Shown: piece by piece, positions 2,011-22,749 of the stretch
Numbering within the stretch: the stretch's first letter is position 1
Layout of the letters: every line of letters starts with the position of its first letter
NCBI GenBank assembly: GCA_043822305.1
Contig: JBDRBU010000101.1
Coordinates: 1-27,041 of the forward strand
Direction of reading: 5' to 3'
DNA length: 27,041 nucleotides
Origin: Candidatus Firestoneibacteriota bacterium
GTDB lineage: Bacteria > Oederibacteriota > D2-FULL-39-29 > JBDRBU01
Program-made: the position numbers and the translations under genes
The notes under the pieces: model-generated
Seen by the model: the letters and a program-made list of their open reading frames with translations, nothing else
Told to the model about the DNA's origin: nothing
Database searches by the model: none

Positions 2011-2038
2011 GGAACTTTTAATAAGTTTAATTGTCTAA
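2011..2038 (+). promoter_or_regulatory. ECF (sigmaE-like) autoregulatory promoter
   Basis: GGAACTT-N15-GTCTAA immediately before ATG 2042; the same boxes and spacing recur at 3604-3631. Confidence 0.8.
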
Positions 2039-2041
2039 ATT

Positions 2042-2611
2042 ATGGGTGATGAAGATATAGACATAGTATTAGTTAATCAGTTAAAAGGTGGTAAAACCAC
2101 AGCATTTAATCAGATAGTTTTAAAGTATAAAGACAAGGTTTTTAATACTGCTTACAGGTTTTTAGGTAACTATCAGGATGCGAATGATTTAACACAGGAA
2201 TGTTTTGTATCAGTGCATAATGGAATTAAAAATTTTAGAGGAGAAAGCAGTTTATCAACCTGGATTTATAGAATTGCAGTAAATGCGTGTAAAAATAAAT
2301 TAAAAAGTCTTGAAAGAAGAAAAGATTTTAAAACACTTTCTTTGAAAGAAAAGATTTTAGATATTAAAGACAATAATTCTCCAGTTGAGTTATTTGAAAG
2401 AAAAGAACTTGAAAATAAAGTGCAAAATGCAATAGATTCTTTGCCAGAGGACTGGAAAGAAACAGTAATTTTAAGAGATATAGAAGGGCTTACATATGAA
2501 GAGATAGCCAAGATTTTGGGATGCGAGGTGGGAACAATAAAATCAAGAATCCATAGAGCCAGGATGTCTTTAAGAGATAAATTAAAAGAAGTTGTTAATG
2601 AGGTAAGTTAA
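2042..2611 (+). CDS. ECF RNA polymerase sigma factor (RpoE/SigW-like)
   Basis: Region 2 (DANDLTQECF...FRGESSLSTWIYRIAVN) and region 4 (LRDIEGLTYEEIAKILGCEVGTIKSRIHRAR); 189 aa. Confidence 0.95.
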   Translation: MGDEDIDIVLVNQLKGGKTTAFNQIVLKYKDKVFNTAYRFLGNYQDANDLTQECFVSVHNGIKNFRGESSLSTWIYRIAVNACKNKLKSLERRKDFKTLSLKEKILDIKDNNSPVELFERKELENKVQNAIDSLPEDWKETVILRDIEGLTYEEIAKILGCEVGTIKSRIHRARMSLRDKLKEVVNEVS

Positions 2612-2612
2612 G

Positions 2613-3584
2613 ATGGATAAAAATTGCAAAGATATATTAGAGTTACTTTCAAGTTATCTTGAAAATGATCTGGATGAAAAAAAGATGATAGAAGTAAAGC
2701 ACCATTTATCAATTTGTAAAAAGTGCAAAAAAGAATATGAAAGTTTATGCAAAACAGTAGGAATATTAAAAAATTTGCCAAAATATACTGCACCATCGAG
2801 TATTTTGGCAAAAGTAAATAAAAAAATACAAGAAAGAAAACCCTTTTGGGAAAAATTATCCCCATTTGGTTTTAAGATTTCATTAGGGACTGTATCGTTA
2901 ATTATAATAACATTAGTTTCTTTTCAGTTATATAGATATATTTCTATAAATTCTATAAATGAGCAAAAGATAACTAAAAAAGAGACCATCAAAAAACTTG
3001 AAAAAAAAATAATGAATAATTTAAAGAAAGATATTAGTGGGGAATTAAAAGAATCCGAGAGATCTCCGCAATCGCTACCAGCTCAAGATAAAGTTGAAAG
3101 TTCTACCATAGAAAAACAAGGGGTAACTAGTGCTATTAAGGAAAGTTTAAGAAATGAAGAAGGAGCAGGTAATTTAAAAAATAAAGATGCTTTATTAGGA
3201 GGAGGAAGAGGAATGATGTTTGATGCAAGACAGGGAGAAGAATTTAATGAATTAAAAGGGACAATGTGCAATTTTAAAGAAAGAAAAAATCTTATCATAA
3301 AGACCAATGTAGAATGGGAAGAGGTATGGAAGAAAACATTTTCAGATAAAGAGATTCCAAAAATTGATTTTGATAAAAAAATGGCTATATTAGTATTTGC
3401 TGGTGAAAAAATGACAGGTGGATATGAAATTAGTATTAAAGAAATTAATTACGAAAAAGATAAAATAATAGTAAAAATAAGTGAAATTATTCCTCCTCGA
3501 AATGCATTTTGTATTATGGTCATAACTTCCCCATTCTATATAAAAATAATTGATAAATCTGATTTACCCGTAGAATTTAAATAG
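2613..3584 (+). CDS. Zinc-finger (zf-HC2/ZAS) anti-sigma factor with TM helix and C-terminal PrcB_C-like domain
   Basis: N-terminal HLSICKKC (HxxxCxxC); one hydrophobic segment (ISLGTVSLIIITLVSF); C-terminus PKIDFDKKMAILVFAGEKMTGGYEISI...VITSPF resembles the PrcB C-terminal domain. Starts immediately after the sigma stop codon. Confidence 0.85.
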   Translation: MDKNCKDILELLSSYLENDLDEKKMIEVKHHLSICKKCKKEYESLCKTVGILKNLPKYTAPSSILAKVNKKIQERKPFWEKLSPFGFKISLGTVSLIIITLVSFQLYRYISINSINEQKITKKETIKKLEKKIMNNLKKDISGELKESERSPQSLPAQDKVESSTIEKQGVTSAIKESLRNEEGAGNLKNKDALLGGGRGMMFDARQGEEFNELKGTMCNFKERKNLIIKTNVEWEEVWKKTFSDKEIPKIDFDKKMAILVFAGEKMTGGYEISIKEINYEKDKIIVKISEIIPPRNAFCIMVITSPFYIKIIDKSDLPVEFK

Positions 3585-3602
3585 GGACAGATACCATTTT
3601 TT
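3579..3602 (+). repeat. Short REP-like imperfect palindrome (GGGACAG family) overlapping the stop codon
   Basis: AAATAGGGACAGATACCATTTTTT shares AAATAGGGACAG with 9673-9684. Confidence 0.5.
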
Positions 3603-3603
3603 T

Positions 3604-3631
3604 GGAACTTTTTATCCTTTCTGTTGTCTAA
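3604..3631 (+). promoter_or_regulatory. ECF promoter for the alpha-2-macroglobulin gene
   Basis: GGAACTT-N15-GTCTAA, same as 2011-2038; SD GGAGG precedes ATG 3697. Confidence 0.8.
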
Positions 3632-3643
3632 AGTAATGAAACG

Positions 3644-3678
3644 AACAACCCCCTGGCCCCCTTTAATAAGGGGGAATA
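3644..3678 (+). repeat. REP-like hairpin repeat (CCCCCTT-N4-AAGGGGGAAT family)
   Basis: AACAACCCCCTGGCCCCCTTTAATAAGGGGGAATA; a related inverted copy lies at 26939-26975. Confidence 0.65.
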
Positions 3679-3696
3679 AAAAACATTGGAGGTTTT

Positions 3697-6600
3697 ATGA
3701 GAAAGATTTGTAAATGGTTTGGACTTGTCTTGTTTTTAATGCTTTTTGTAAATGGGGTAAAACAAGTTTCTGATATAAAAAAGGCCGATAAGTTGTTTGA
3801 AAAAGGAGTGTTTCAGGAAGCATTAAAGGAATATGAAGAAGTTTTTAAAGAAACAAAAGATAAAGAGGTTAAATGGAAGGCATTTTTTAGAATCTGCGAG
3901 TCTTTAGGACATTTATTTAGATATGGAGAAGCATCACAAAAATTATTTGATGTTAAAATTCCGGATACAATGCCTTATCGTGCCAGAATATTAATTCTTA
4001 AGGTAGAAGTTTTAAGAAATTTCTTAATGCAGTATTCTAATATTCAAACTAAAGATGTAATAGAAGAAGAAGGAAAAGAAGTTTTTAAGTGGACTCCAAA
4101 AGAGATAAAAAATGAGATTAAAAAAACTTATAAAGAACTTTGGAGTTTGAAAACCGAACTTGTGAAGATGGACATTAAAAAAGAAGATTATTTTATAGAT
4201 ATAAAAGATATAGATTTTGGGATGTATCCAACATTATTTGATTTTGTAGTATATAGATTATCTGATTTTTTAATTTATTTAACAGGTGATAAAAATGTTA
4301 TTCCTCCTGATTGTGAATTAATATTAGTTAAAGATTTTGATAGACCACTGAATTTTGAAGATACTCCTGCATTACTATGTGCGGAGGTTTTAGAAGAAGC
4401 GTCTAAATTTGAGGCAAAGAATCGTACCGAAGCATCTGAAAGATTAAAAATAAAAAGATTATTACTTCCTTTAAATTATCCTAATCTTTATATCGTAAAT
4501 TCATCAGGTAATAGAGATGTATACTTAGATAAAGATAAGTTTTGCAGAAATAAATTAAAAGAAATTTTAAATATATGGATGAAAGAATTTAAAACAAAAG
4601 AAGGAAAAGGAGAAGCAGGATATAAGATAGCGGAGATATTAAATAGGGAAGGGAAATACATTGAATCTGTAAAAATATGTGAAAAAATTGAAAAGGAATT
4701 TGGGGGAACATATGCATCTATCCAAGCTAAAAAATTAAGATTAGAAATCCAGAAGCCTTTGCTTTATATTGATGCTAAGACTATCATGCCTTTTAACGAA
4801 GGTGCTATTTCAGGGACAACAAGAAATCTAAAAGAAGTTTATTTCCGTATTTATAAAGTAATTCCAGAAGAATTTAAGGAAATAAGGAAAGGTATTTATA
4901 GAAAAAATTATCGTACGGATTATAAAATAGAAGATTGGTCAAATGTTTTTAATAATATAGACGAGGAAACAATAAAAAAATATTTGGCTAAAGAAGAACT
5001 CTATAAATCATGGAAAATAGAAACAGAAGATAAAGATGATTATAAAATAATTACAAGTAAAATTACTCATCCAAAATTAGAAGGTGGGATTTATTTAGTT
5101 ATTGGATGCAATGATAATTCCTTTAGTGTCGGAAGTTCTTTAATTAATGCAAGTCTTTTAAATGTAACAGATTTAAGTTTAATCACTACTTCGGGATTTA
5201 CTAAAAAGACAAAATCAGCATATTATAATTTCATAGATAATGAAAAAGAGGATAATTTTTCTGATGATTGTTTTCGTTTTTACACATTAAATTCCAAAAC
5301 AGGAAAACCAGTTGAGGCTGATATAAATGTTTATTATTCTGTTAGAAATAACAGACAAAATATAGATTTGAAAACAAAAGATGGATTTAATTCATTATCT
5401 TTACCTCTTTCACTTTTCCCACATTCTAGTAATTATTATAATATAAGTCCTTTAGCAAATAAAGATGGTTCATATGCTTATTTACAAAATGACTTTTATT
5501 TTAATTATAATCCACCAAATCCGATAAGATTATTTTTAGAATTAGATAGACCTATATATAGACCATCGGATAAAGTTTCAGTAAAAGTAGTAGTTGTAAG
5601 AGATTCTTCTAATGGATTTAAAACTTTAAATAATAAAGAAGTTAAATTTAATGTTTATGATGTTAATCATAAAGAGTTTTATAATGAAACTGCAAAACTT
5701 AATGAGTTTGGTAGTGCGAATATCTCTTTTGAAATACCAAAAGGAAGGTTACTTGGAAATTATAGTATTTCTGCTTCTTGTCTGGATGGTAGATTTCATA
5801 ATCAAACATCTACATCTTTTTCTGTGGAAGAATATAAGAGACCCGAGTTTGAAATTAAATTATCTAAATTAGAAGAGGCAGTTAAATACGGGAAATCAGT
5901 TAATGTTAAAGGAGAAGCAAAATATTATTTTGGTGGACCTGTTCCTGATGCAAATATTAAATATCGTATTGTCAGACAGACTTGGATACCCTGGTTTTAT
6001 CGTTATTGGTTTAGTCAAGGGTATTCTGCAGGAGAAGAAGAAATAGCCACAGGAGAATTAAAAACAGACTCTAACGGGAATTTTGTTATTCCATTTATCC
6101 CTACTCTCCCATTAGGACAAGAATACTCAGGTAAAATTCCTGATATTTCTAATTATTTGGTTGAAGTAGAAGGAAGAGATTCGGGAGGTAGAACTATAAA
6201 AGGAAAAGAAAATTATAAAGCAGGTAAGCATAGTTTATATTTTGAGATAATTCCCAGAAAAGGATTCTTTTTAGAAAATGAGACAGTTGAAATAGAATCT
6301 AAGTTGCTTACAATAAATGATACCCCATTTAAAGGTAAGAGTGGTTATGAAATATGGACACTTAAAAATGTTCCTCCTAACCCTTCAGGATCTAAAGAAG
6401 AATATTGGGTGCCACCTTTGGATATGCAGTTGAAGGATATTCCTAATGATGAATTAGTAGCATCTGGAAAAGTAGAACATAATGAAGATGGAAAAGGAAC
6501 AATTAAAATTTTAAATCTTAAACAAGGAGTATTTAGAATTATAGAAAAAACCAAAGATTTGTGGGGGGAAGAAGTTAAACAGGAAAAAATTTTTGTAGTA

Positions 6601-9600
6601 GCCAAGGATAAAAATACTGCAGTTCCTATTCCAGCGAATATTGTTACATTAGTTGAAAAAGACGAATATGAAATTGGTGAAACTGTTAGATTTATTATAG
6701 GTTCTGCAAATTGTTCTGGAACTTATTTTATAGAGATTTATTGTGGTGAGTATTTTGTTAAATATAAACTAATAGATAATAATCAACCAGTAACTATGAT
6801 AGAAATTCCAGTAACAGATGAACTTAAAGGAGGATTTACTTTAAGATGGTTTGGGGTAAATAACCTTGAAGTTTATGGTAATAAAATTACAGTTTCTGTT
6901 CCATATGGAGAGAAAAAACTTAATATCCTTTTAAGTAAGTTTGATAAAGAGTTGCAACCTGGTAAAGAAGCTGAATTTGAAGTCAAATTAAAAGATAAAA
7001 ATAATTCAGATGTAGAGGGAGAGGTTCTTGCTTTAATGTATGACCGTTCTTTAGAATATTACTTAAAAAGAGAAGGTAACTGGCTTGATAGTCTTTATAC
7101 TTTAAAAGATTTTTATCTTTATTTGAATGATTCTGTATTTAATCATTACAGAATAGATTTACCTGTAAGAGAAGGTTGGATAAAAGAGATGATTGATTTG
7201 ATTTATGGTTCTCGTAAAGAATCTAAAGACCCATCTTTACGAATATGGAGGACATGGGCTTATGCAAATGGTGGTATGAGAAGGTCGTTGGGGGGAAAAG
7301 GCATGAAAATGAAAATGAAAAAAGATGTTTTATCGGCTGCAAAAATGGAATCTCTTGCTACTGACAGTTTAAAAGTAGAACCTGAAAATGGAGGAAAAGA
7401 AGTTGCAGTTGAATCAAGAAAACAATTTGCTGATACTGCTTTCTTTATGCCTCAGATCATAACTAAAGGCGGTACGGCAAAGTTTAAATTTGTTGCTCCA
7501 GAACAACTTACAAGCTGGAAAATTAAACTGTTTGCATTAACAAAAGATGTAAAAGAAGGAAAATTAGATGAAGAAGCAGTTACAAAAAAAGACCTAATGG
7601 TTAGAGTTGATATCCCGAGATTTTTCAGGGAAAAAGATAAAGGAGAAATAACAGTTATTGTCCATAATGAATCAAAAGAACAAATTGAAGGAGAATTATT
7701 AGTTGAAGTCAAGGAAAATAAAAAATTAATTAACGAAAAAATAAAACTTTTGGATAATAAAAAGAAATTTAAAGTAGAATCTCATAGTTTGGCAAGTTTT
7801 AAATGGACGATAGAAATACCTGATGGAATAACTACATATAAAGTTAAAGCAACAGTAGTTTCTAATAAATACACTGATGCAGAAGAGAGAGAACTTCCAA
7901 TACTTCCATCCAGACAGAGATTAATTGAATCTGCGTTTGCTTCTTTATCTGGAAAAATTTCAAAAGAACTCAAAATTAATTTAAAAGAAGATCCTACAAG
8001 AATCAATGAAGCCATGGTATTTCAGATAGAACCATTAGTTGCATTAAGTTTATTAAATACAATACCATTTCTTATTGAATACCCGTATGAAAGTATCGAC
8101 CATATATTGAATAAATATGTTCCACTTTCAATAATAAATGAAGTCTATAAGAATTATCCAGATATTAAAAAATCTGTAAGTAAAATACCAAAAAGAAAAA
8201 CAGTAACACCACCCTGGGAAAAGGAATCTCCACAAAGACTTATAACACTGATGGAAACACCATGGATATGGCAGTCAGAAGGAAGACCAACACCATACCC
8301 AATAATAGACTTATTGGATCCAGAGATAGTCGAGAGACAAAAAGAGGTAAATTTAGAGAAATTAAGTTCAAATCAGCTTCTTAATGGAGGGTTCCCGTGG
8401 TTTCCTGGAGGAAGGGATGATATGTATATTACATTATATGTTTTAGATGGATTGGCCGAGGCGAAAAGATATAAGGTTGATATGCCGAAAGATGTAATTA
8501 ATAAAGCATTAAATTATGTAAATAATGAGATTCCTAATAGAGTAAAAAAAGAAGAAGGAAATTTATGTATAATTGCATATGCGTCTTATATTTTAACCTG
8601 TTATTTACCAAATGAATTTTCCTCTGCAGGAAAAAGCCATGAGTTAGTAAGAAAATGGGTAGAATTTCTGGAAGAAAATGTTTTTGCTCTGACACCATTA
8701 GGAAAAGCATATTTAGCTTATACATTTTTACATCTGGGTGATAAAGAAAAAGCAAATAAATATTTAGATATGGCTATGGATGGAAGCAGGGAGGACCCTG
8801 ATACTGGAGTTTACTGGACACCAGAGAAATACTCCTGGGTTTGGTATTCTGATACAGTAGAAAAGCATGCGTTTTTATTAAAAACTTTACAGGAACTTAG
8901 ACCGGATGATAAAAGAATTCCTGGAATGGTTCAATGGTTATTATTTAATAAAAAAGGAAATGTATGGAAATCTACAAAAGCATCAGTGGCCGCAATTTAT
9001 TCTTTATTAGATTATTTAAATAAAATAGGTTCTTTGAATAGTGATGAAAAATTTAAAATAAAATGGGCTAATTTAACTGATTCAATTGTCATCAAGCCAG
9101 ATGATTGGTTAGAAAAGCCAATTAGATTAAAACAGACCGGATTTGAAATAACTAAAGATAGTAATACGGTTAAAATAGAAAAAGATGGACCTGGTTATGC
9201 ATTTGCTTCTTTAACCTGGACATACTTTACAGACCAGTTACCATCTGCATCTACTCCAGGGATATTAGAATTAAAGAGAACATTTTATAAAAGGGTTAAA
9301 GAAGGAGAGGATTATAGTTTAAAGCCAATAAAATCGGAGGAAGAAGTTAAAGTAGGAGATGTGATAGAAATTCATTTAAAGATAAATACAAAGAGTCAGT
9401 TTGAGTATATGCATTTGAAAGATTTTAAACCATCTGGATTTGAAGCAGAGACTCTTCTTAGTGGATGGAAATGGAATCCACTCTGGTTTTATGAAGAGCC
9501 AAGGGATTCATTGACAAATTTCTTTATAAGCTGGCTACCACCTGGAGAATATATTTTAAAATATAGAATTAGACCAACTAAGACCGGCACATATAGAGTA

Positions 9601-9678
9601 GGAGCAGCAATTTTACAATCAGTATATTCACCCGACATCACAGCTCATATCGCTGGATTTATTATTAATGTAAAATAG
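3697..9678 (+). CDS. Bacterial alpha-2-macroglobulin family protein (MG2/A2M), without thioester motif
   Basis: Signal peptide, TPR-like N-terminus, DRPIYRP (MG2), FSVEEYKRPEF, A2M segment FADTAFFMP...PEQLTSWK...PRFFREKD, TED QLLNGGFPWFPGG and WKSTK, C-terminal EPRD...Y...G.Y. The thioester site reads YPYESIDH. Confidence 0.93.
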   Translation: MRKICKWFGLVLFLMLFVNGVKQVSDIKKADKLFEKGVFQEALKEYEEVFKETKDKEVKWKAFFRICESLGHLFRYGEASQKLFDVKIPDTMPYRARILILKVEVLRNFLMQYSNIQTKDVIEEEGKEVFKWTPKEIKNEIKKTYKELWSLKTELVKMDIKKEDYFIDIKDIDFGMYPTLFDFVVYRLSDFLIYLTGDKNVIPPDCELILVKDFDRPLNFEDTPALLCAEVLEEASKFEAKNRTEASERLKIKRLLLPLNYPNLYIVNSSGNRDVYLDKDKFCRNKLKEILNIWMKEFKTKEGKGEAGYKIAEILNREGKYIESVKICEKIEKEFGGTYASIQAKKLRLEIQKPLLYIDAKTIMPFNEGAISGTTRNLKEVYFRIYKVIPEEFKEIRKGIYRKNYRTDYKIEDWSNVFNNIDEETIKKYLAKEELYKSWKIETEDKDDYKIITSKITHPKLEGGIYLVIGCNDNSFSVGSSLINASLLNVTDLSLITTSGFTKKTKSAYYNFIDNEKEDNFSDDCFRFYTLNSKTGKPVEADINVYYSVRNNRQNIDLKTKDGFNSLSLPLSLFPHSSNYYNISPLANKDGSYAYLQNDFYFNYNPPNPIRLFLELDRPIYRPSDKVSVKVVVVRDSSNGFKTLNNKEVKFNVYDVNHKEFYNETAKLNEFGSANISFEIPKGRLLGNYSISASCLDGRFHNQTSTSFSVEEYKRPEFEIKLSKLEEAVKYGKSVNVKGEAKYYFGGPVPDANIKYRIVRQTWIPWFYRYWFSQGYSAGEEEIATGELKTDSNGNFVIPFIPTLPLGQEYSGKIPDISNYLVEVEGRDSGGRTIKGKENYKAGKHSLYFEIIPRKGFFLENETVEIESKLLTINDTPFKGKSGYEIWTLKNVPPNPSGSKEEYWVPPLDMQLKDIPNDELVASGKVEHNEDGKGTIKILNLKQGVFRIIEKTKDLWGEEVKQEKIFVVAKDKNTAVPIPANIVTLVEKDEYEIGETVRFIIGSANCSGTYFIEIYCGEYFVKYKLIDNNQPVTMIEIPVTDELKGGFTLRWFGVNNLEVYGNKITVSVPYGEKKLNILLSKFDKELQPGKEAEFEVKLKDKNNSDVEGEVLALMYDRSLEYYLKREGNWLDSLYTLKDFYLYLNDSVFNHYRIDLPVREGWIKEMIDLIYGSRKESKDPSLRIWRTWAYANGGMRRSLGGKGMKMKMKKDVLSAAKMESLATDSLKVEPENGGKEVAVESRKQFADTAFFMPQIITKGGTAKFKFVAPEQLTSWKIKLFALTKDVKEGKLDEEAVTKKDLMVRVDIPRFFREKDKGEITVIVHNESKEQIEGELLVEVKENKKLINEKIKLLDNKKKFKVESHSLASFKWTIEIPDGITTYKVKATVVSNKYTDAEERELPILPSRQRLIESAFASLSGKISKELKINLKEDPTRINEAMVFQIEPLVALSLLNTIPFLIEYPYESIDHILNKYVPLSIINEVYKNYPDIKKSVSKIPKRKTVTPPWEKESPQRLITLMETPWIWQSEGRPTPYPIIDLLDPEIVERQKEVNLEKLSSNQLLNGGFPWFPGGRDDMYITLYVLDGLAEAKRYKVDMPKDVINKALNYVNNEIPNRVKKEEGNLCIIAYASYILTCYLPNEFSSAGKSHELVRKWVEFLEENVFALTPLGKAYLAYTFLHLGDKEKANKYLDMAMDGSREDPDTGVYWTPEKYSWVWYSDTVEKHAFLLKTLQELRPDDKRIPGMVQWLLFNKKGNVWKSTKASVAAIYSLLDYLNKIGSLNSDEKFKIKWANLTDSIVIKPDDWLEKPIRLKQTGFEITKDSNTVKIEKDGPGYAFASLTWTYFTDQLPSASTPGILELKRTFYKRVKEGEDYSLKPIKSEEEVKVGDVIEIHLKINTKSQFEYMHLKDFKPSGFEAETLLSGWKWNPLWFYEEPRDSLTNFFISWLPPGEYILKYRIRPTKTGTYRVGAAILQSVYSPDITAHIAGFIINVK

Positions 9679-9913: not shown

Positions 9914-9941
9914 GCCATTGCCAATAAAGGAGGAATTTGTT

Positions 9942-10166
9942 ATGAGAGAGTTTAAAATTATTGTGGAAAAGCATCCCGATGGTTATGTGGCATATCCATT
10001 AGGGCTCAAAGGGGTTGTGGTTGGACAAGGAGATACATATGAAGAGGCACTCTCTGATGTAAAGTCAGCAATTCATTTTCATATTGAGACCTTTGGAAAT
10101 GAAGTAATGGAAGTAGAACCACGAATTATTGATGCCTTCATTGCTGAAGCAGGAGTGGAAGTTTGA
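9942..10166 (+). CDS. hicB: Type II TA antitoxin, HicB family (short form)
   Basis: SD AGGAGG before ATG 9942; IIVEKHPDGYVAY...GQGDTYEEALSDVKSAI is the HicB partial RNase H fold signature. Confidence 0.88.
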   Translation: MREFKIIVEKHPDGYVAYPLGLKGVVVGQGDTYEEALSDVKSAIHFHIETFGNEVMEVEPRIIDAFIAEAGVEV

Positions 10167-10405
10167 TGGTAAAGTTTCCTGTTGATGCACCCAAGCGAAA
10201 AGTAGTAAAGGCGATAGAGATTTTGGGTTTTCGAATCGTAAGGGAAAAAGAACACATTTCCATGATACGTGAAAACCTTGATGGAAGTAGAACTCCTTTG
10301 ACTATGCCGAATCATCCAAAAATAAAAGCTTCCACATTAAGAACAATTTGTACTCAATCGGGGATTACAAGAGATGAGTTTTTGGAGGCTTATAGGAAGG
10401 CATAG
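10166..10405 (+). CDS. hicA: Type II TA toxin, HicA family
   Basis: TGATG coupling to hicB; VVKAIEILGFRIVREKEHISM...TMPNHPKIKASTLRTICTQSGITRDEF fits the HicA dsRBD-like fold with its catalytic His. Confidence 0.88.
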   Translation: MVKFPVDAPKRKVVKAIEILGFRIVREKEHISMIRENLDGSRTPLTMPNHPKIKASTLRTICTQSGITRDEFLEAYRKA

Positions 10406-11910: not shown

Positions 11911-12517
11911 CTAAATAAAGGTCGCTGTCCCCTTTATTCTTAAGCCAATTATAAACGGAATAATAAAAAGAAAAGATTTTAAATTAAATATTTTTTTATC
12001 TTCTTTAAAGATAAAAAATAAAATTGCAGGAAATAAGAAAATCAATGTTTGATGGTTTGTTAGAGATAGTCCATATATAAAGAAAAATAAATATAATAGT
12101 TTAATGTCTTTTTTCGATTTCCATATTAAAAGCACAAATATTAAGATGGCTACAAAGAAATTATTTAATGCGAAAACTTCGGCTAATATAGAATATTTCC
12201 AGAATAATGATGAACATCCTAAGGCAAATGCAGAAACCAATCCAGAGATTTTATCTTTTGTAAGGATAAAAACGATTAAATAAACTAACAAGACACATAA
12301 ACTTCCAAAAACGGCACTCATTGCATGCTATGGTTGAAAGAGGCAGGTAAGTAAATAGCTTTCCAAACATGTTAAATAAAGGATAACCAGGCGGATGGGC
12401 TATACCGAGCAAGTGGGAACAGGTGATTAACTCTGCATTATCACCAACCGCGACTATTGTTGGTGCAAGTGTAAGGATATAAAGAAATAAAGGTATTATA
12501 AAAACTATGACCAGCAT
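11911..12517 (-). pseudogene. DUF2723 / TMEM260-like GT-C membrane glycosyltransferase, frameshifted and 3'-truncated
   Basis: GDNAELIT...LGIAHPPGYPL in ORF 12251-12517 continues in another frame as MSAVFGSL...AEVFALN...GLSLTNHQT (frameshift near 12322). The gene ends in the REP-like palindrome (KGTATFI*). Confidence 0.85.
11914..11938 (-). repeat. REP-like palindrome with GGGACAGCGAC core (right flank of cassette array)
   Basis: AATAAAGG-TCGCTGTCC-CCTTTATT; the reverse complement contains GGGACAGCGAC as in 9678-9688. Confidence 0.65.
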
Positions 12518-15547: not shown

Positions 15548-15606
15548 GTCTAACATACCAATTTGGTATGTATTTATGAACCATTTCAGCAATATATAAG
15601 TTATAT
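15548..15606 (+). mobile_element. Degenerate attC-like site 5
   Basis: GTCTAAC...GTTATAT. The 21 nt from 15600 match the reverse complement of 16490-16510 at 14/21, all mismatches being transitions. Inner arms are not recognisable. Confidence 0.4.
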
Positions 15607-16456
15607 GAAATGGCATTGTTGTAATAACATAAATATTTCCAAGGAGGTTAAGAAACCCAATGATAAACGTAAACAACTTTTTATTGCCTTATCAATTTAT
15701 CTCATTTATGTTGGGATAATTTTGTTAGCCAACATGCTAATGAGAATGAGTATCTTAACCCACAACAAAAATCTTGAGGAAGTTTCAGGGATACTTTTTG
15801 GCTTTATTGGTATCCCAATCTTCAGCATTATCTTGCCACTCTGGTTAGCAAAAAAATGGCAACTTCCTTACTCGTTTTGGCCTAAAAGTAAAAGATGGGT
15901 TCTTGTTGCTATTATTCTTTTAATCTATATTTTTCTTTCTTTTTTTGAACCAATAAAAATGGTTTTGAATAGCGGAATTTCAATAAGAGATTTTGCTGTT
16001 CATTATATTAGCAGTATGTTTTTTCATGTAGCATACTATCCGTTATTTGCGGTTTTTATGTTTCCAATTTTTAGAAAGAATTTCGGATTAATTAAAGGTT
16101 TGGTACTAACTTCTCTTGCTTTTGCACTTTATCATTTAGCCCAGTTTCATTTTTTTCCTGCTGGAACAACTATTAGCATGCAAATATTTCTTTTTGTGTT
16201 ATTTATTACTTTATTATTGCTTTATTTATGGAGCGAATCGATCATATTGATGGCGCTCACGCACAGCATATGTGGAGCAGTAGGTCTTATTGCTGGCGGG
16301 AAATTATTTAATGATATTGATATTATCTTTTATTTAGCAATTATCTATATGGTTGTGCTTTTTGGATACATGATTCAACAGGAGTTAAAATATAGAAAAA
16401 GAGTTGAAGAATTTGACGCAGATTGGTGGTTGCAAATTTCCATTAAAGACAAGTAA
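15605..16456 (+). CDS. CPBP/Abi (CAAX protease-like) membrane protein, divergent; start uncertain
   Basis: Multiple TM helices; FRKNFG...SLAFALYH...SIILMALTH pattern of the CPBP family, but no EExxxR motif. Confidence 0.65.
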   Translation: MKWHCCNNINISKEVKKPNDKRKQLFIALSIYLIYVGIILLANMLMRMSILTHNKNLEEVSGILFGFIGIPIFSIILPLWLAKKWQLPYSFWPKSKRWVLVAIILLIYIFLSFFEPIKMVLNSGISIRDFAVHYISSMFFHVAYYPLFAVFMFPIFRKNFGLIKGLVLTSLAFALYHLAQFHFFPAGTTISMQIFLFVLFITLLLLYLWSESIILMALTHSICGAVGLIAGGKLFNDIDIIFYLAIIYMVVLFGYMIQQELKYRKRVEEFDADWWLQISIKDK

Positions 16457-16503
16457 AGGTAAATTAAAACAAATAAAGATCGAATAAATAATGATGCTAC
16501 TTT

Positions 16504-16583
16504 ACATAATAGCGGATAAAATGGAAATCAAAGATTTCCACAAATTGTCTTTGGCAACTTCTTTTATCCGCGTCCCATTAGAC
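16504..16583 (+). mobile_element. Degenerate attC site 6 (copy of attC2)
   Basis: 80 bp like attC2, with a 55/59 identical core; R boxes read ACATAAT and ATTAGAC rather than ...AAC and GTT.... Confidence 0.75.
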
Positions 16584-16615
16584 GAAATAAGACTTTATGT
16601 GTTAAAGGATAAACA

Positions 16616-17344
16616 ATGAAGATTTTGAAAAACTTATTTAAATGGCAGCCAAATAAAGAGACTTTTATTGCCTTTTCTCTTGCAGTGGTTATCATTGTTT
16701 TATCAATGATAATGCCATTTTTTGAAGAATCAATTACGATAATTATATTGATTAGAGATGTTTTAATGATTATCGGAGGTATTTTCTTTCCTCTTTGGTA
16801 TATTCAAAGCAAAAAATATCAATTTAAAGACTTCGGATTATCAACAAGAAAATGGTATATTTACCTACCAATAAATATTATCCTCGGTGTATTGTTACTT
16901 TTTATCTTTCTTAAGGATTATCCTGATGCAAAGATAATTTTTGATTCAAATGTAATTGCAAAAATTGGCTATATTATGATTGCTGGAGTATTTGAGACAA
17001 TAGTATTTTATGCATTTCTACGAAAAATCTTTGAGGATGCTTTTGGAATAATTCCGGCAATCTTGTTATCCTCAATAGCATATTCATTTCATCATGCTGG
17101 ATTTCAACCTGAATTCCTGAAGCTAATCTTTGTGGGAGTTCTTTATGCTACTGTTTTTAGAGCAGTCAATAGTGCATTGTTGATATATCCTTTTTTTTGG
17201 GGAGTAGGCGGTTGTTTTGATGTTTTAATCCAGTCTAAAGTAGTTGATGAAATACTATATTCCGGAATACGAGTAATAATTTTATTTGCTTTGTTGATAA
17301 TAGTTGGATTTTTAACATATAGATTTCATAGGAGGAAAACTTAA
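16616..17344 (+). CDS. CPBP/Abi-family intramembrane protein, divergent
   Basis: FKDFGL, AGVFETIVFYAFL...FG...SSIAYSFHH; polytopic membrane protein; SD AAGGA. Confidence 0.75.
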   Translation: MKILKNLFKWQPNKETFIAFSLAVVIIVLSMIMPFFEESITIIILIRDVLMIIGGIFFPLWYIQSKKYQFKDFGLSTRKWYIYLPINIILGVLLLFIFLKDYPDAKIIFDSNVIAKIGYIMIAGVFETIVFYAFLRKIFEDAFGIIPAILLSSIAYSFHHAGFQPEFLKLIFVGVLYATVFRAVNSALLIYPFFWGVGGCFDVLIQSKVVDEILYSGIRVIILFALLIIVGFLTYRFHRRKT

Positions 17345-17345
17345 A

Positions 17346-17876
17346 ATGAATAAAAGAGATTTCAAATTTATTTTTGCACCAATTGGTGTTGCTTTTGGAA
17401 TTTTTCTATTTATAAGTGTATGTATATTTATTACTAACAAATTTGGAGTTTCAGATTTATATCACATTTTGAGGTTTATTCCTAAGAGGTTAATTTTTAG
17501 TATTGGTATTATAACGGTACTTACTTTTCTACCAATATTTGTTATAGGAATATTTTATCTAAATCGCAGAGGAGCAGTTGGTCAATCTGATAGTTTAGTT
17601 ACAAATGGAATATATAAATATGTAAGAAATCCGATGTATTCAGGTATAAGTTTTACAATCTTTGGAATAGGTTTTCTATTAAATAAAACAGGTGTGGTTC
17701 TGGCTGGTATTCTATGGCTTCTTATGACTTTTATTCAATGCAAAAGAGAAGAAAAAGAGTTAAATGGAAGGTTTGGAGAAGAATATATGAATTATAAAAA
17801 CAGCAGCCATATGTTTATCCCTAACTTTAAGAAATTAATGACAGATATTATTCAGAATTTTAAAGGAGGAAAATAA
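17346..17876 (+). CDS. Isoprenylcysteine carboxyl methyltransferase / PEMT family membrane protein
   Basis: LVTNGIYKYVRNPMYSG...REEKEL..RFGEEY..YK....FIP signature. Confidence 0.9.
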   Translation: MNKRDFKFIFAPIGVAFGIFLFISVCIFITNKFGVSDLYHILRFIPKRLIFSIGIITVLTFLPIFVIGIFYLNRRGAVGQSDSLVTNGIYKYVRNPMYSGISFTIFGIGFLLNKTGVVLAGILWLLMTFIQCKREEKELNGRFGEEYMNYKNSSHMFIPNFKKLMTDIIQNFKGGK

Positions 17877-18478: not shown

Positions 18479-18712
18479 ATGAGAACAACTGTTGTTTTAG
18501 AACCTGAAATAGAAAAATTAGTTAAGGTACTATCTGATAAGAAGGAATTTAGTCAATTTATAAATCAGTGCATTAGAGAACATTTTAAGAATGAGGAGAA
18601 AAAAAAGATAAAAAATAAGTTAGCTGTAAGTTATAGAATGGCAAACAAAGAAGGGGAGGAGATAGTAAAGGGATTTAAATCCATTGAAGTAGAAGGATGG
18701 CCAAAATGGTGA
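18479..18712 (+). CDS. Putative RHH-type antitoxin for the MazF toxin
   Basis: Strong SD; MRTTVVL beta-strand then helices (SQFINQCIREH); acidic tail ending VEGWPKW; overlaps the toxin start. Confidence 0.75.
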   Translation: MRTTVVLEPEIEKLVKVLSDKKEFSQFINQCIREHFKNEEKKKIKNKLAVSYRMANKEGEEIVKGFKSIEVEGWPKW

Positions 18713-19056
18713 GTTTACCATTACGAGGTGAAATCTATTGGGTGAATCTTGAACCTACTTTAGGAAGTGAGATTAAAAAAACTCGCCCTTGTTTAGTTGT
18801 CTCCTGTGATGAAGCGAACAAAAATTATGGACAGGTGACCGTCCTGCCTTTAACATCGCAACACTTATCAATGATTACGCCCTTCCATGTATTTTTGTCA
18901 GCGAATGAGACTGGTTTAGATAAAGATTCAAAAGCTTTAGCTGAACAGATTAGAACTGTTTCTAAGTTTAGGTTAATTAAAATGGTTGGAAGAATAAGGG
19001 AAGAATTAATGATTAAGGTATCCTGTGCTATAAAAATCCATTTGGATTTAGAATAG
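18706..19056 (+). CDS. mazF: PemK/MazF family endoribonuclease toxin
   Basis: RGEIYWVNLEPTLGSEIKKTRPCLVVS...VLPLTS...DSKALAEQIRTVSKFRL; ATG 18706 has the SD GAAGGA. Confidence 0.93.
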   Translation: MVSLPLRGEIYWVNLEPTLGSEIKKTRPCLVVSCDEANKNYGQVTVLPLTSQHLSMITPFHVFLSANETGLDKDSKALAEQIRTVSKFRLIKMVGRIREELMIKVSCAIKIHLDLE

Positions 19057-19095
19057 TTTGTTAACTGGTATTTTAAAGTAAAAATATATTTAAAT

Positions 19096-22000
19096 ATGAA
19101 TAATATTTTACAGAATTTCATAAAATATTGTTTGGGTTATATTAATATAACAAGGCAGAAAGCATTTACATTACAGCAGAAATATTCTGTTTCCTTAAAT
19201 AGCTATTTTTTACTTAATGACCTCTTAAAATCAGATATAGACATTGATTCTGCTATTATTGTTAATCTTGATACATTTTATAAATATGATCCGGGAAAAG
19301 TGACAAAAGAAAATCAAAATATTTATGAAGAACAAAAGATAATAGCTAATAAATTGGAAGAAATTAATAATGAATATAAAAACGATCAATTCAGGAAACA
19401 AATCATTTTAAATTTTGGTTTTTTTCAAATAGAAATACCGCGGGATGAAGAAGAAAATCAAGTGGAAATTGAAGATGAAGAAGATAATGCTATATCAAAA
19501 GTGAAAGATAAGAATGAATTCCAACAATCCTTATCTTTTTTTGAAGATAATATCAAAAATAGAAAATATAATAACGATACATCTAAATATGATAAATACC
19601 CGATTTTTTCTATAGTTGTCAATATTAAAAAAATATATGAAAATGGTGTAAATAAGTTTTATATTTATCCTATTGATACAGAAGTAAAAATTAATATCCA
19701 AAGTTTAAACAAGATATTAGGGGAAGAACTATATTATCATTTAATAGAAACATTTGGTGTATATGAGTTAGAGGATAAATTATCGTTGCCTTTAGTAGAA
19801 AGTGATATTTTAAAAGAAGTATGGGGAAAAATTAAAGCTCAACTTAAGCATACTGATGTAAAATTTGATGAGAATACATTCAAATTAGATGAGGTGAAAA
19901 TAGCATTAAATCCAAGAACTAATTACTTTTTAGCAGAGGATCTTCAGAAACTTTCCAAGATGGAAGAAGAGAAATTAGACATGACAGTGTTAAAAAGTTG
20001 GATTAACAATGAAGACTTAAATATAGAAGATAATATTCCGCAAGAAGAAGATATATATTTTCCATTTAAATATGATAGATTTCAATTACGTTCATTATCA
20101 CTTATGAGTAATAGGGCCGCAATTGTTCAAGGTCCACCCGGAACCGGAAAATCAGAAACTATATCTAATATTCTATGTCATTTAGCCGCTAAGGGAAAGC
20201 GAGTTCTTTTTGTTAGTCAGAAAGCACAGGCATTAAAAGTTGTTAAAGATAAACTAAAAACTTTAAATGTTAAATACCTTTTTGGGTATATTCCAAATCC
20301 ATCTTCTGCTCAACTTAATGAGCAAGATGAAATAGATGGAATTGCGCCTCAATTAACTGCTTTAAATTCATATATTGAAAAATTAGGATTTATATATGAC
20401 GAAAGAAAAAGGTTAACTATATATAAAGAATATGAAGAAAAAGATGGAAACAATGATAGTTTAGTTAAAATAATTAAAAAGAAGGAACAATTAAAATATG
20501 GATTTAATGAGCAAATTGAAAAAGAAAGAGAAATATGTGGATTATATATGAAATATAAAAATATTGATATCTACAATATAAATATTCCCAGAATAAAAGA
20601 CTTTAAAAATAACTTATCTTTGAGTAAGTGGAAATGTATTTTAGAATACGAAAATGAAATTGAAAGGTTGAACAAGGAAGCAGAAAAATATGAAAAGGAA
20701 CAAAAAGGAGAAAAATATAGTAAAATTTTTATAAATATTGACTGTGAATATGAATTCTGTGATGCAATTTGCAAAATAAGGGAAGATATCAACAAAACTG
20801 GATACGATAGGCATTCAAAATATTTTAAAAAGTTCAATAATATTTTACGGAATATTAGGATGAGAAAAACATTTTTGAGTTTACCAAGAGAAATTTTAGA
20901 TTTTATAAACAGTGTTCAAAATAGCGATATTTCAAGAAAAGAAAAAGTTGAGCAGATGGATGATATTATTTATTATTTTCAATATAAAAAGTCTAAAAAA
21001 GTATTAAAACAACTAAACAAAGATATGAAAATGGAGTTACATTCATATAGTATAGATAATGATACTATATTGAGAGACATTAAAAATTTACTAAATACTG
21101 ATTCTGACTTTGAAGTTGTAAAAAATAAAATAATTGAATCTCAAACAATAATGGATAGAATAAAAAGTATAAGGAACGAAATAGAAATAAATGTAAATTT
21201 AAATTATTTTTCTAATTCCTTAAAAAAGGTTAAGTTGGAACACTCTCAATGTATTGCTCAATATTTGAAAAACATAATAGATAAAAGAATTATTGATAGA
21301 TGGAAGGCAGGGGTAGAAATACGTCAAGCAATAAATAAGTTAGCGAAGGCATTTAGAAAGTCAAAAAAAGCATACAAAACTTTTGATGAGATTAGAAAAG
21401 ATAGCAAAAAATTCAAAGAAGTTTTGAGTCTTGTACCTATATGGATTATGGAATTAGATGATGCAAGTCGTATAATGCCATTAGAATCCGGCTTGTTTGA
21501 TTATGTTATTTTAGACGAAGCTTCTCAATGTAATATTGCCTATACATTACCATCAATGTATAGATCTAATCATGCAATATTTGTAGGCGATAGTGAACAA
21601 ATGAGAGATAATACTATTATATTTAAATCAAATAAAATGTTTGATGAACTAGCATGTAGATATAAAATATCAGAAGAATTGCAAATTAAATCAACTGGGA
21701 ATGCAGTGCAATCGGTTTTGGATATAGCCACATTAAGAGGTTTTATTTCAATTCCATTAAGATATCATTATAGATCACCAAGAGAATTAATCGGTTTTAG
21801 TAATAAATATTTTTATAGCTCCAAAGGCAAAGAATTAATAGTTTTTAATCATAATTATTTTCTTTATAAAGATACAAGTAAGATTATGATTATACATCAA
21901 GTAGAAGATGTTTCAAAAGAATTTTCTGATAAAGTAAGTGTTGCAGAAGCAGAAGAAATATTGAAATTGTTCAAGAAGTTAAAGAAAGATGTAAATTATG

Positions 22001-22749
22001 AAGATAAGTCGATTGGTATATTAACATTTTTTAATGCCCAAGCAACTTATTTAAGAGAGTTATTTGAAAAAGAAGGTTTTAAGGAGGAAGAGAATAACTA
22101 TAAAATTAGCATTATTGAGGGTATACAAGGTGATGAAAAGGATATTATTATTTATTCATTTGTAATTCGTAATGCTGATCAGAAAAACAAATATCTACCA
22201 TTGACAGGAGAAGGTGGGGATATCAGGGGCGATATAAATAGAGGAAGAGTTAATGTAGCATTTACTAGAGCAAAATTACAGGTGCATTGTTTTATTAGTA
22301 TGGATATAAAGGAAATACCAAATGGAATATGGATTAGAAAATATTTAGAATATGTTAATAAATATGGAAAAGTAAATTGTTTTGAAAATACCCTTAATAA
22401 GTTTGATTCTCATTTTGAAGAGGAATTCTATGGTTTCATTAAAAATCATTTTTTTGATAAGGATAAGTATATGATACAAAATCAAGTTAAAAGTTGTGGG
22501 TTTAGAATAGATTTTGTTATTAATAATTTGAAGAATAGCAAGAAAGTAGCAATAGAATGTGATGGCCCGACTCATTTTAAAAATGAATTAGATGAAGAAC
22601 TTGGGATATATATTGAAAGCGATGAAGAAAGGCAAGGAGTATTGGAAAGTGCTCAATGGAAGTTTTATAGAATAAGATATTCAGATTGGATAAGAGAAGA
22701 TTATAACAGAAATAATATTATTAAAGATGTTGCTACGATATTAGAGTAA
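19096..22749 (+). CDS. SF1 (Upf1/DNA2-like) helicase fused to a C-terminal Vsr/DUF559/MTES_1575-like endonuclease
   Basis: Walker A QGPPGTGKS, DEASQ, VGDSEQ, YHYRS, IEGIQGDEKD, RVNVAFTRAK; long coiled insert; C-terminus FDSHFEEEF...FRIDFVI...AIECDG..H...DEERQ..LE...WKFYRI. Confidence 0.88.
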   Translation: MNNILQNFIKYCLGYINITRQKAFTLQQKYSVSLNSYFLLNDLLKSDIDIDSAIIVNLDTFYKYDPGKVTKENQNIYEEQKIIANKLEEINNEYKNDQFRKQIILNFGFFQIEIPRDEEENQVEIEDEEDNAISKVKDKNEFQQSLSFFEDNIKNRKYNNDTSKYDKYPIFSIVVNIKKIYENGVNKFYIYPIDTEVKINIQSLNKILGEELYYHLIETFGVYELEDKLSLPLVESDILKEVWGKIKAQLKHTDVKFDENTFKLDEVKIALNPRTNYFLAEDLQKLSKMEEEKLDMTVLKSWINNEDLNIEDNIPQEEDIYFPFKYDRFQLRSLSLMSNRAAIVQGPPGTGKSETISNILCHLAAKGKRVLFVSQKAQALKVVKDKLKTLNVKYLFGYIPNPSSAQLNEQDEIDGIAPQLTALNSYIEKLGFIYDERKRLTIYKEYEEKDGNNDSLVKIIKKKEQLKYGFNEQIEKEREICGLYMKYKNIDIYNINIPRIKDFKNNLSLSKWKCILEYENEIERLNKEAEKYEKEQKGEKYSKIFINIDCEYEFCDAICKIREDINKTGYDRHSKYFKKFNNILRNIRMRKTFLSLPREILDFINSVQNSDISRKEKVEQMDDIIYYFQYKKSKKVLKQLNKDMKMELHSYSIDNDTILRDIKNLLNTDSDFEVVKNKIIESQTIMDRIKSIRNEIEINVNLNYFSNSLKKVKLEHSQCIAQYLKNIIDKRIIDRWKAGVEIRQAINKLAKAFRKSKKAYKTFDEIRKDSKKFKEVLSLVPIWIMELDDASRIMPLESGLFDYVILDEASQCNIAYTLPSMYRSNHAIFVGDSEQMRDNTIIFKSNKMFDELACRYKISEELQIKSTGNAVQSVLDIATLRGFISIPLRYHYRSPRELIGFSNKYFYSSKGKELIVFNHNYFLYKDTSKIMIIHQVEDVSKEFSDKVSVAEAEEILKLFKKLKKDVNYEDKSIGILTFFNAQATYLRELFEKEGFKEEENNYKISIIEGIQGDEKDIIIYSFVIRNADQKNKYLPLTGEGGDIRGDINRGRVNVAFTRAKLQVHCFISMDIKEIPNGIWIRKYLEYVNKYGKVNCFENTLNKFDSHFEEEFYGFIKNHFFDKDKYMIQNQVKSCGFRIDFVINNLKNSKKVAIECDGPTHFKNELDEELGIYIESDEERQGVLESAQWKFYRIRYSDWIREDYNRNNIIKDVATILE

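Follow-up and report, generated by a model that had tools for sequence, protein, structure and literature searches.

Sigma-E of Escherichia coli with RseA, DegS and RseP, and sigma-W of Bacillus subtilis with RsiW, PrsW and RasP, are points of comparison for an extracytoplasmic function (ECF) sigma factor and its anti-sigma factor. B. subtilis sigma-V and RsiV are a further case: the outer domain of the anti-sigma binds the attacking lysozyme, which licenses site-1 cleavage, and the sigma induces a specific countermeasure. Bacterial alpha-2-macroglobulins (A2Ms), such as ECAM/YfhM of E. coli with PBP1c and MagD of the mag operon in Pseudomonas aeruginosa, are assumed to guard the periplasm against proteases, and little is known of their control. 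Here, we analyzed a 27,041-nucleotide stretch (the window; contig JBDRBU010000101.1 of Candidatus Firestoneibacteriota bacterium, assembly GCA_043822305.1), in which an A2M gene follows the genes of an ECF sigma factor and of an anti-sigma factor with a PrcB_C-like domain. The window genome (G000 in our set) is an assembly of 2,148,896 bases in 125 contigs, 96.8% complete. The control of an A2M appears to be legible here in the sequence, as a dedicated sigma factor whose sole extra promoter in the genome is that of the A2M gene.

The closest described wiring is found in P. aeruginosa, where the ECF sigma factor SbrI, held by the anti-sigma SbrR, promotes muiA transcription and is described as an envelope-stress responder (review PMC10418997, on the system of McGuffie et al. 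2016). Both sbrI and sbrR also figure among the envelope-stress genes listed in two other papers. Judged by these passages, our locus resembles SbrI/SbrR-muiA in joining an ECF sigma to an adjacent anti-sigma and in its tiny regulon, namely itself and a single exported effector. Five sister genomes have an effector from MuiA's own family, whereas the effector in the window is an A2M and no DUF4139 match was found in the window genome. The sister genomes thus seem to repeat the known ECF-to-MuiA wiring in a phylum distant from Pseudomonas, and the window would be a variant with an A2M in MuiA's place. We regard the locus as a variant of the ECF sigma/anti-sigma circuits with a one-gene regulon, near SbrIR-MuiA in wiring and near RsiV in proposed logic, with the A2M effector and the PrcB_C sensor as its new parts. 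An earlier, sequence-only reading of the window had known of no described inducible module of this type; this stands for the A2M but not for the wiring, since an ECF factor with a one-gene effector regulon is known from SbrI/SbrR-muiA. We found no publication linking an A2M to an ECF sigma or anti-sigma, or PrcB to an anti-sigma, in a search that had the supplements of ECF classification papers outside its scope, and these could list the pairing.

The three-gene unit and its twin putative promoters

The unit occupies positions 2042-9678 of the window on the + strand. Its first gene (2042..2611, +) encodes an RpoE-like ECF (group 4) sigma factor of 189 residues with regions 2 and 4 only. Pfam places Sigma70_r2 at residues 26-92 (E 4.1e-18) and r4_2 at residues 126-177 (1.4e-17) and also matches Sigma70_ECF (3.6e-9), and the NCBIfam sigma70-ECF superfamily model gives 121.5 bits, above its cut-off. 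RpoE (TIGR02939) is the best equivalog, yet its 164 bits lie below the cut-off of 236.15, and we call the protein RpoE-like only. A single-pass anti-sigma of 323 residues with zf-HC2 and PrcB_C domains (2613..3584, +) starts 1 nt past the sigma stop. The gene of a 1993-residue A2M (3697..9678, +) starts 112 bases beyond the anti-sigma, with Pfam matches to MG2 (4.5e-17), A2M_BRD (6.9e-7), A2M (1e-19) and bMG10 (4.2e-22). Pfam thereby confirms all three members of the tandem that the sequence-only reading had described.

The same reading had noted GGAACTT-N15-GTCTAA before both the sigma and the A2M genes. The motif is indeed exact at both places, at 2011-2038 (+; putative ECF-type promoter P1, GGAACTTTT-N13-GTCTAA) and at 3604-3631 (+; putative ECF-type promoter P2). 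P2 lies 66 nt before the A2M start codon, and GGAGG stands 6 nt 5' of that ATG. No exact match appeared in 100 dinucleotide shuffles of the window, and a scan of the whole assembly returned exactly two, P1 and P2. These were also the sole matches in the assembly to three of four relaxed forms of the motif; allowing one mismatch added two matches, for a total of four against four for a reversed-pattern control, which is no excess. The GGAAC -35, the GTC-type -10 and the single-pass anti-sigma, presumably co-transcribed, recall sigma-E/RseA and sigma-W/RsiW. Unlike in those systems, the regulon in the window apparently comprises a single gene and the periplasmic domain is PrcB_C-like; unlike sigma-E/RseA, the locus encodes no RseB-like partner. 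An Rfam search of the window gave no match, and a hairpin in the A2M leader (CCCCCUU/AAGGGGG, 3647-3694, -16.4 kcal/mol), whose flanking pairs touch GGAGG, is not significant against shuffles (z -1.27). A sigma-70-like TTGCAA-17-TATTAT is present at 1976-2004.

Relatives carry the same promoter. We aligned 13 sites from seven genomes, comprising seven before sigma genes, three before A2M genes (G000, G008 and G011) and three before DUF4140/DUF4139 genes (G002, G004 and G006). All of them keep GGAACTTT[TC]-N13-GTC[TC][AC]A, the spacers and flanks diverge, and the sites lie 20-70 nt before start codons with the P1 of the window as sole exception. The equivalent of P2 in G008 has one change in the -10, and G011 also has the motif before its A2M gene. 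When five relatives were scanned genome-wide, the motif with up to one mismatch matched 14 times: five sigma promoters, two A2M promoters, three DUF4139 promoters and four others. These four are a copy of the sigma promoter on another contig of G011, a site in G004 ahead of the gene for a type II secretion ATPase, and a near-identical pair of sites in G002. No GGAAC-N15-19-GTC motif was found before the sigma gene in three loci of family f2 (L024, L028 and L029). Because the -35/-10 pair is kept at 13 sites in seven genomes while the spacers diverge, the A2M is very probably the single effector of the sigma. The parts, their order and the two unique, phylogenetically conserved promoters stand in the sequence itself; the dependence of the promoter on this sigma is what we infer from them, and we consider it highly likely that the A2M gene is transcribed by this factor.

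An A2M in an exchangeable cargo slot

The A2M resembles ECAM/YfhM and MagD in its MG2, bait-region, A2M and bMG10 domains, in being exported and in being, presumably, a periplasmic protease trap. Unlike them, it is ~2000 residues long, with a 600-residue N-terminal extension and a dedicated ECF promoter. Its Sec signal has no lipobox (no Cys follows the hydrophobic stretch of the signal), which sets it apart from ECAM/YfhM, as does the lack of pbpC (no transglycosylase/transpeptidase occurs among the neighbors scanned); unlike MagD/YfaS, it is not surrounded by a six-gene mag/yfa operon. It has no NCBIfam match, and its matches among solved chains, to A2ML1 and C4, are weak. A candidate bait region rich in Gly, Lys and Met spans residues ~1180-1240 (7234..7416, +), as suggested by its sequence and by gaps in a two-sequence alignment with the G008 orthologue. 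Residues 1462-1469 (8080..8103, +) form a degenerate thioester site, YPYESIDH, where relatives have YPY-x-C-x-E-Q. The CxEQ is kept in 9/9 other full-length relatives and lost in the window's A2M, the frame of which is otherwise intact; the loss is therefore recent. The protein is thus without a thioester, like MagD. Thioester-less A2Ms are reported to trap without covalent bonding, and the window's A2M, having lost its thioester, would trap non-covalently.

Same-order genomes share a backbone of an LPG_synthase_C/CxxCxxCC gene on the opposite strand, the sigma and anti-sigma genes, a variable insert, a histidine kinase and a response regulator. The insert is missing in G004 and G006, consists of two small open reading frames (ORFs) and a PMT-like gene in G002, and is an A2M gene with 44% identity in G008; the contig of G011 ends 140 bases into its A2M gene. 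The sequence-only reading had counted on linkage with the A2M being conserved in relatives, and this holds in part. Linkage and promoter are both conserved in G008 and G011, where the motif comes directly after the pair, but these are 2 of the 11 same-order relatives; the sigma/anti-sigma pair is present in 12/12 same-order genomes and the A2M wiring in 3. Across the phylum, the bMG10 profile finds an A2M in 39/99 genomes, and 31 genomes have both an A2M and the C-terminal domain of the anti-sigma (C-domain); the two are adjacent in only 3 of these 31 (G000, G008 and, across a contig end, G011). No ECF-type motif was found directly upstream of the non-adjacent A2M genes in G002, G016, G022 and G032.

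Elsewhere the pair goes with other genes. In G002, G004 and G006 the second promoter precedes a MuiA-family (DUF4140/DUF4139) gene of ~551 residues, and that of G002 gives 429 bits against TIGR02231 ('mucoidy inhibitor MuiA family'). In G077, from a distant family, a MuiA-family gene is divergent from the pair with GGAACCTTT-N13-GTCTTA facing each way, and in G025 a similar motif precedes a weak homologue of DUF4139 proteins. The MuiA-family genes of the four relatives (DUF4140+DUF4139, TIGR02231) lie behind the ECF promoter at L050:8470-10134(-), L051:2886-4541(-), L052:1659-3314(+) and L068:6413-8122(-). In G039 the pair is followed, behind an ECF-type motif, by a VIT-vWA gene; in G017 four NHL-repeat genes come between the pair and such a gene. 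In G016, G022, G033 and G038 a Peptidase_MA_2-PD40 gene is near the pair, with an Omp85 match in the three complete copies, and an S49 peptidase gene adjoins the pair in one of these loci. Because the pair elsewhere drives a MuiA-family gene or adjoins VIT-vWA or peptidase genes, the module is, by its gene neighborhoods, an ECF circuit whose cargo can be exchanged rather than one reserved for an A2M.

A strict either/or of A2M and strong DUF4139 in family f3 was considered and rejected, given that G002 has a promoter-bearing DUF4139 gene and also a second, divergent A2M without the motif. No kinship was detected between the MuiA family and A2Ms (hhalign probability 0.2%). The MuiA family had no match among PDB sequences, the ESM Atlas gave its own family only, and a search for functional publications on DUF4139 found none; the swap of a MuiA-family protein for an A2M under one promoter is a lead to MuiA function. 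The VIT-vWA genes after the pair, which are inter-alpha-trypsin-inhibitor heavy-chain-like, are located at L026:4716-7091(-) and L022:1975-4137(-).

Public records contain A2M orthologues at seven loci, of which two (L058 and L060) share the gene order of the window. The other five, 43-58% identical, come from records labelled Omnitrophota (2), Zixiibacteriota, Spirochaetaceae and 'uncultured bacterium', and none of these five has a sigma pair upstream or an ECF-type motif. In a midpoint-rooted FastTree phylogeny of all 12 A2M rows, with none dropped and with G011 filling only 13% of columns, the group of G008 and G011 is sister to G000 plus the four closest public orthologues (SH-like supports 98-100). 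From this distribution and this tree, the A2M is therefore, as far as such comparisons tell, a mobile gene that occupies the cargo slot of an older ECF circuit in one order.

The anti-sigma factor and its proposed signal

Pfam finds only zf-HC2 and PrcB_C in the anti-sigma, and both are above their cut-offs, as the sequence-only reading of the C-terminal domain had implied. The zf-HC2 match covers residues 5-38 (35.6 bits, cut-off 22.2) and includes the ZAS motif H31-x3-C35-x2-C38, in which H31 and C35 are invariant and C38 is at least 90% conserved in 18 homologues. In the AlphaFold2 (AF2) model of the anti-sigma, built on 18 homologues, the helical N-domain (block means 82-93) and the C-domain are both confident, and a membrane helix and a disordered linker lie between them. 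The structures closest to the N-domain are RsiW (5wuq_C, Z 6.6, root-mean-square deviation 5.1 Å over 70 residues), MucA (8z6g_A, Z 6.4) and RslA (Z 5.4), where a Z below 8 is weak for helical models. The transmembrane segment, at residues ~84-107 (2862..2933, +), is supported by the AF2 helix and by the top 19-residue hydropathy windows, which start at residues 84-89. It is followed by a Lys/Glu-rich periplasmic linker at residues ~116-207 (2958..3233, +), with a predicted local distance difference test score (pLDDT) mostly below 50, and this linker varies freely in length and sequence across the 18 homologues. The window genome also encodes an RseP-like M50 protease (455 residues) and an HtrA; the presence of such genes and the weak resemblance of the N-domain to RsiW and MucA also recall the sigma-E and sigma-W systems.

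The PrcB_C-like extracytoplasmic domain comprises residues 209-323 (3237..3581, +). Pfam PF14343 matches residues 258-308 with 42.4 bits (gathering cut-off 24, E 8.1e-11). Homologues in G017, G022, G039, G040, G003 and G077 also pass the cut-off, and the five scanned homologues of family f3 (G002, G004, G006, G008 and G010) fall short of E 0.001. An assignment as the dentilisin PrcB equivalog (NF033596, denti_PrcB) was rejected: residues 220-314 align with positions 72-167 of the 176 in the model at 49.6 bits, below the cut-off of 125, and the domain is fused to an anti-sigma with no S8 gene in the window. Folded alone by AF2, the C-domain reaches a pLDDT of 92.8 and a predicted template-modelling score of 0.84, and no solved counterpart was found by Foldseek (best E 0.49), by VIA-align over 48,161 chains (best Z 3.0) or by a profile search of PDB sequences (best E 0.064). 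The whole anti-sigma model gave nothing for the C-domain in Foldseek and VIA-align, the lists being filled by helices.

Searched against 1.84 billion cluster representatives, the C-domain profile matches 11,087 of them at E <= 0.001, and many of these contain the domain in 2-8 tandem copies. We scanned with Pfam 101 of the best 150 listed representatives, the longer ones being left out; 83 of the 101 match PrcB_C and 9 also zf-HC2. The consensus of the representatives' alignment opens with a lipobox-like L-x-x-C. By these counts, the PrcB_C-like domain is a common exported module, and the anti-sigma fusion a minority use. The genome G017 holds a decayed second copy, a 45-residue PrcB_C-like fragment with two stop codons between NHL-repeat genes (G017:C7:98358-98495; L022 ~5359-5496).

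The function of the domain is documented in Treponema denticola, where PrcB is part of the dentilisin complex prcB-prcA-prtP (Godovikova et al. 2010, quoted in PMC12243296). According to the family description given there, PrcB binds the subtilase PrtP, and the complex requires PrcB to be stable (PMC12243296). The sole relevant paper found on PF14343/PrcB_C quotes that description, and the PrcB-PrtP interaction is the sole function on record for the family; no publication treating PrcB_C as a sensor was found. The window domain is homologous to PrcB, whose partner is a subtilase, the class docked in our complex model below; unlike PrcB, a free lipoprotein in a protease operon, it forms part of a ZAS anti-sigma, at a locus that lacks a protease gene.

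The window genome encodes two subtilases, one of which is a 711-residue S8 protease with a prodomain and a Por_Secre_tail sorting domain. We modelled the PrcB_C-like domain with residues 120-625 of this enzyme, supplying our own domain alignment. The complex scored 0.80 (0.80, 0.78 and 0.81 in the runs) against 0.00 for the best of three controls, the runs shared at least 91% of contacts, and the partner pLDDT was at least 83. The mark for this score is attained by 116/157 solved complexes and 2/215 mismatched pairs, counts that apply only roughly because our own alignment was used. In the model, a loop of the C-domain (SEIIPPRNAFCIMVI, residues 290-304; 3480..3524, +) is predicted to enter the active-site cleft and to run along enzyme strand 289-292, with Met302 at a P1-like place adjoining S559, H221 and N323; D153 is also contacted. 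D153, H221 and S559 are the catalytic triad and N323 the oxyanion residue, as assigned by motifs. The modelled docking is the binding mode of a substrate or canonical inhibitor, and it supports protease sensing without demonstrating it.

Further observations are consistent with a protease signal. In P. aeruginosa, making too much of the periplasmic protease CtpA induces both SbrI and MuiA, the target of SbrI, according to section 4.1.6 of a review of the regulators of this species (PMC10418997). The effector in the window belongs to a protease-trap family, and in G077 a subtilase gene lies 3.6 kb from the sigma/anti-sigma pair. In G018, a 222-residue PrcB_C-like protein (L067:8715-9383(-)), matched by our own profile only and not by Pfam, is encoded directly upstream of a 1552-residue subtilase (L067:3696-8354(-)) on the same strand. 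This arrangement looks like a dentilisin-like pairing and would support protease sensing.

The proteolytic cascade and the sensed signal are what we infer from these data, and we propose a three-gene envelope-defense circuit. At rest, the cytoplasmic ZAS domain would keep the ECF sigma at the membrane, and the PrcB_C-like domain on its long linker would offer loop 290-304 as a pseudo-substrate to subtilisin-type proteases active in the periplasm, which might be the cell's own mislocalized enzymes or foreign ones. Binding or cleavage by the protease, at the PrcB_C loop or in the long linker, would remove or unmask the periplasmic part; the stump would then be cut by an RseP-type site-2 protease and cytoplasmic proteases, and the sigma freed. 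The free sigma would transcribe its own operon and, from the promoter at 3604, the A2M gene, and the secreted thioester-less A2M would trap proteases non-covalently. This would resemble sigma-V/RsiV in its logic, with the anti-sigma as receptor for an attacking enzyme; unlike RsiV, the sensor domain is unrelated (zf-HC2 and PrcB_C only), and a protease would take the place of lysozyme as the threat, with a trap as the countermeasure, as proposed here from sequence and models. Taken as a whole, with protease sensing included, this mechanism is a tentative proposal in which we place nearly, though not quite, as much belief as doubt.

Several points weigh against this proposal. Many subtilisin-inhibitor complexes with canonical loops have been solved, and the docking mode may have been borrowed by the predictor from them, although the C-domain itself has no solved relative that we found. 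Loop 290-304 is not conserved among homologues, differing in sequence and length and containing indels. The mere presence of a PrcB_C-like domain says little because the domain is so common, often in tandem copies. Subtilases were found in 85/99 genomes of the phylum (E <= 1e-10), but at this threshold none was found in 7/12 same-order genomes carrying the anti-sigma, among them both other A2M-wired genomes, G008 (86% complete) and G011 (80%), as well as G001 (98%). If the protease reading is right, the partner would often be a foreign enzyme or one from outside the subtilases. Most relatives have as effector a MuiA-family protein, or a different one, that has no known link to proteases. Finally, the -10 hexamer of P1 ends 3 nt 5' of the sigma ATG (2033-2044), and no Shine-Dalgarno site precedes that ATG, whereas the sigma-promoter -10 of six relatives lies ~24 nt before the start codon with a Shine-Dalgarno site (GGAGG). 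A sigma transcript from P1 would be leaderless or start within the ORF (codon 1-2). The protease signal suggested by the sequence-only reading thus gains from the complex model with its controls and from the PrcB-PrtP precedent, loses from the same-order genomes without a subtilase, and stays tentative.

The circuit may instead be a general envelope-stress ECF system of the SbrI/SbrR kind, responding to a non-protease cue such as osmotic or cell-wall damage or misfolded exported proteins, with the PrcB_C-like domain as a ligand or partner module and the A2M as interchangeable protective cargo. We take this to be a serious possibility, if well short of an even chance. It would account for the same pair and promoter driving a MuiA-family gene in G002, G004, G006 and G077, for the weak DUF4139 homologue in G025 and the VIT-vWA gene behind an ECF-type motif in G039, and for a pair that is universal in the order with A2M wiring in a quarter of it; moreover, SbrI is also induced by osmotic shock and D-cycloserine, as a passage of PMC10418997 states. 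However, it explains neither the strong, specific complex model, in which the loop enters the active site of a subtilase, nor the one role documented for PrcB, and a cargo that traps proteases suits a protease cue more than a generic cue.

Two other explanations appear much less probable. Feedback sensing, modelled on CpxP and CpxA, would have the PrcB_C-like domain bind the induced effector (the A2M, or MuiA in relatives), so that free effector shuts the system off and consumed effector releases the brake. The tiny regulon with one effector per genome would suit this, as would the swapping of the effector while the sensor family stays, but one conserved domain would then have to bind proteins as unrelated as the MuiA family and A2Ms, and we consider it improbable. 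P2 might also be a relic rather than a working promoter, with transcription of the A2M gene starting at an unrecognized housekeeping promoter or reading through from the sigma operon. No terminator-like site was found between the anti-sigma and A2M genes, and the five A2M orthologues elsewhere manage without such a motif. Against this, the genome has the motif nowhere else but at P1, three genomes whose intergenic sequences otherwise differ all retain it ahead of the A2M gene, and it lies 66 nt before a start codon with a GGAGG site; a non-functional P2 is hence hardly to be expected.

A broader form of the protease-sensing proposal is that PrcB_C domains form an unrecognized family that binds subtilases as pseudo-substrates or inhibitors and has a fold not represented in the PDB, and that the ZAS fusion is a direct receptor by which an active periplasmic protease switches on a one-gene countermeasure, the A2M trap. 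This would be a sense-enzyme, induce-antidote loop parallel to lysozyme-RsiV, with a cargo slot refilled in evolution by MuiA-family, A2M and VIT-vWA genes. We offer it as a conjecture that may well prove wrong. If the PrcB_C-like domain is indeed a protease receptor, a signal could be named for a whole class of ECF systems, the C-domain profile matching 70/99 genomes of the phylum, and PrcB-type lipoproteins would also gain a function.

Genes around the unit

A gene with CxxCxxCC and LPG_synthase_C domains (558-1967, -) is divergent from the sigma gene, and this neighbor is kept in six of the scanned loci from relatives: L017, L018, L020, L024 and L028 by Pfam, and L029 by size only. Downstream of the A2M gene are a hicB/hicA-like pair, an ORF with no family assignment and a PMT fragment. 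The pair, just 3' of the A2M gene (9918-10405), consists of a weak DUF5678/HicB-like gene and then a HicA toxin gene (36.6 bits) and is likely a toxin-antitoxin pair. The fragment is a TMEM260/PMT-type glycosyltransferase of 136 residues (11911-12321, -), probably a remnant, because full genes of 613-615 residues occupy the equivalent place in L019 and L028. Farther on (15563-17876), an ICMT/PEMT-type methyltransferase gene and a DUF2141 gene come after two genes for Rce1-like endopeptidases of the CAAX type, a set reminiscent of eukaryotic CAAX processing. At 18697-22749, a MazF/PemK toxin gene precedes the gene of a 1217-residue AAA_11/AAA_12 helicase with a C-terminal MTES_1575 nuclease domain, which is possibly a defense gene.

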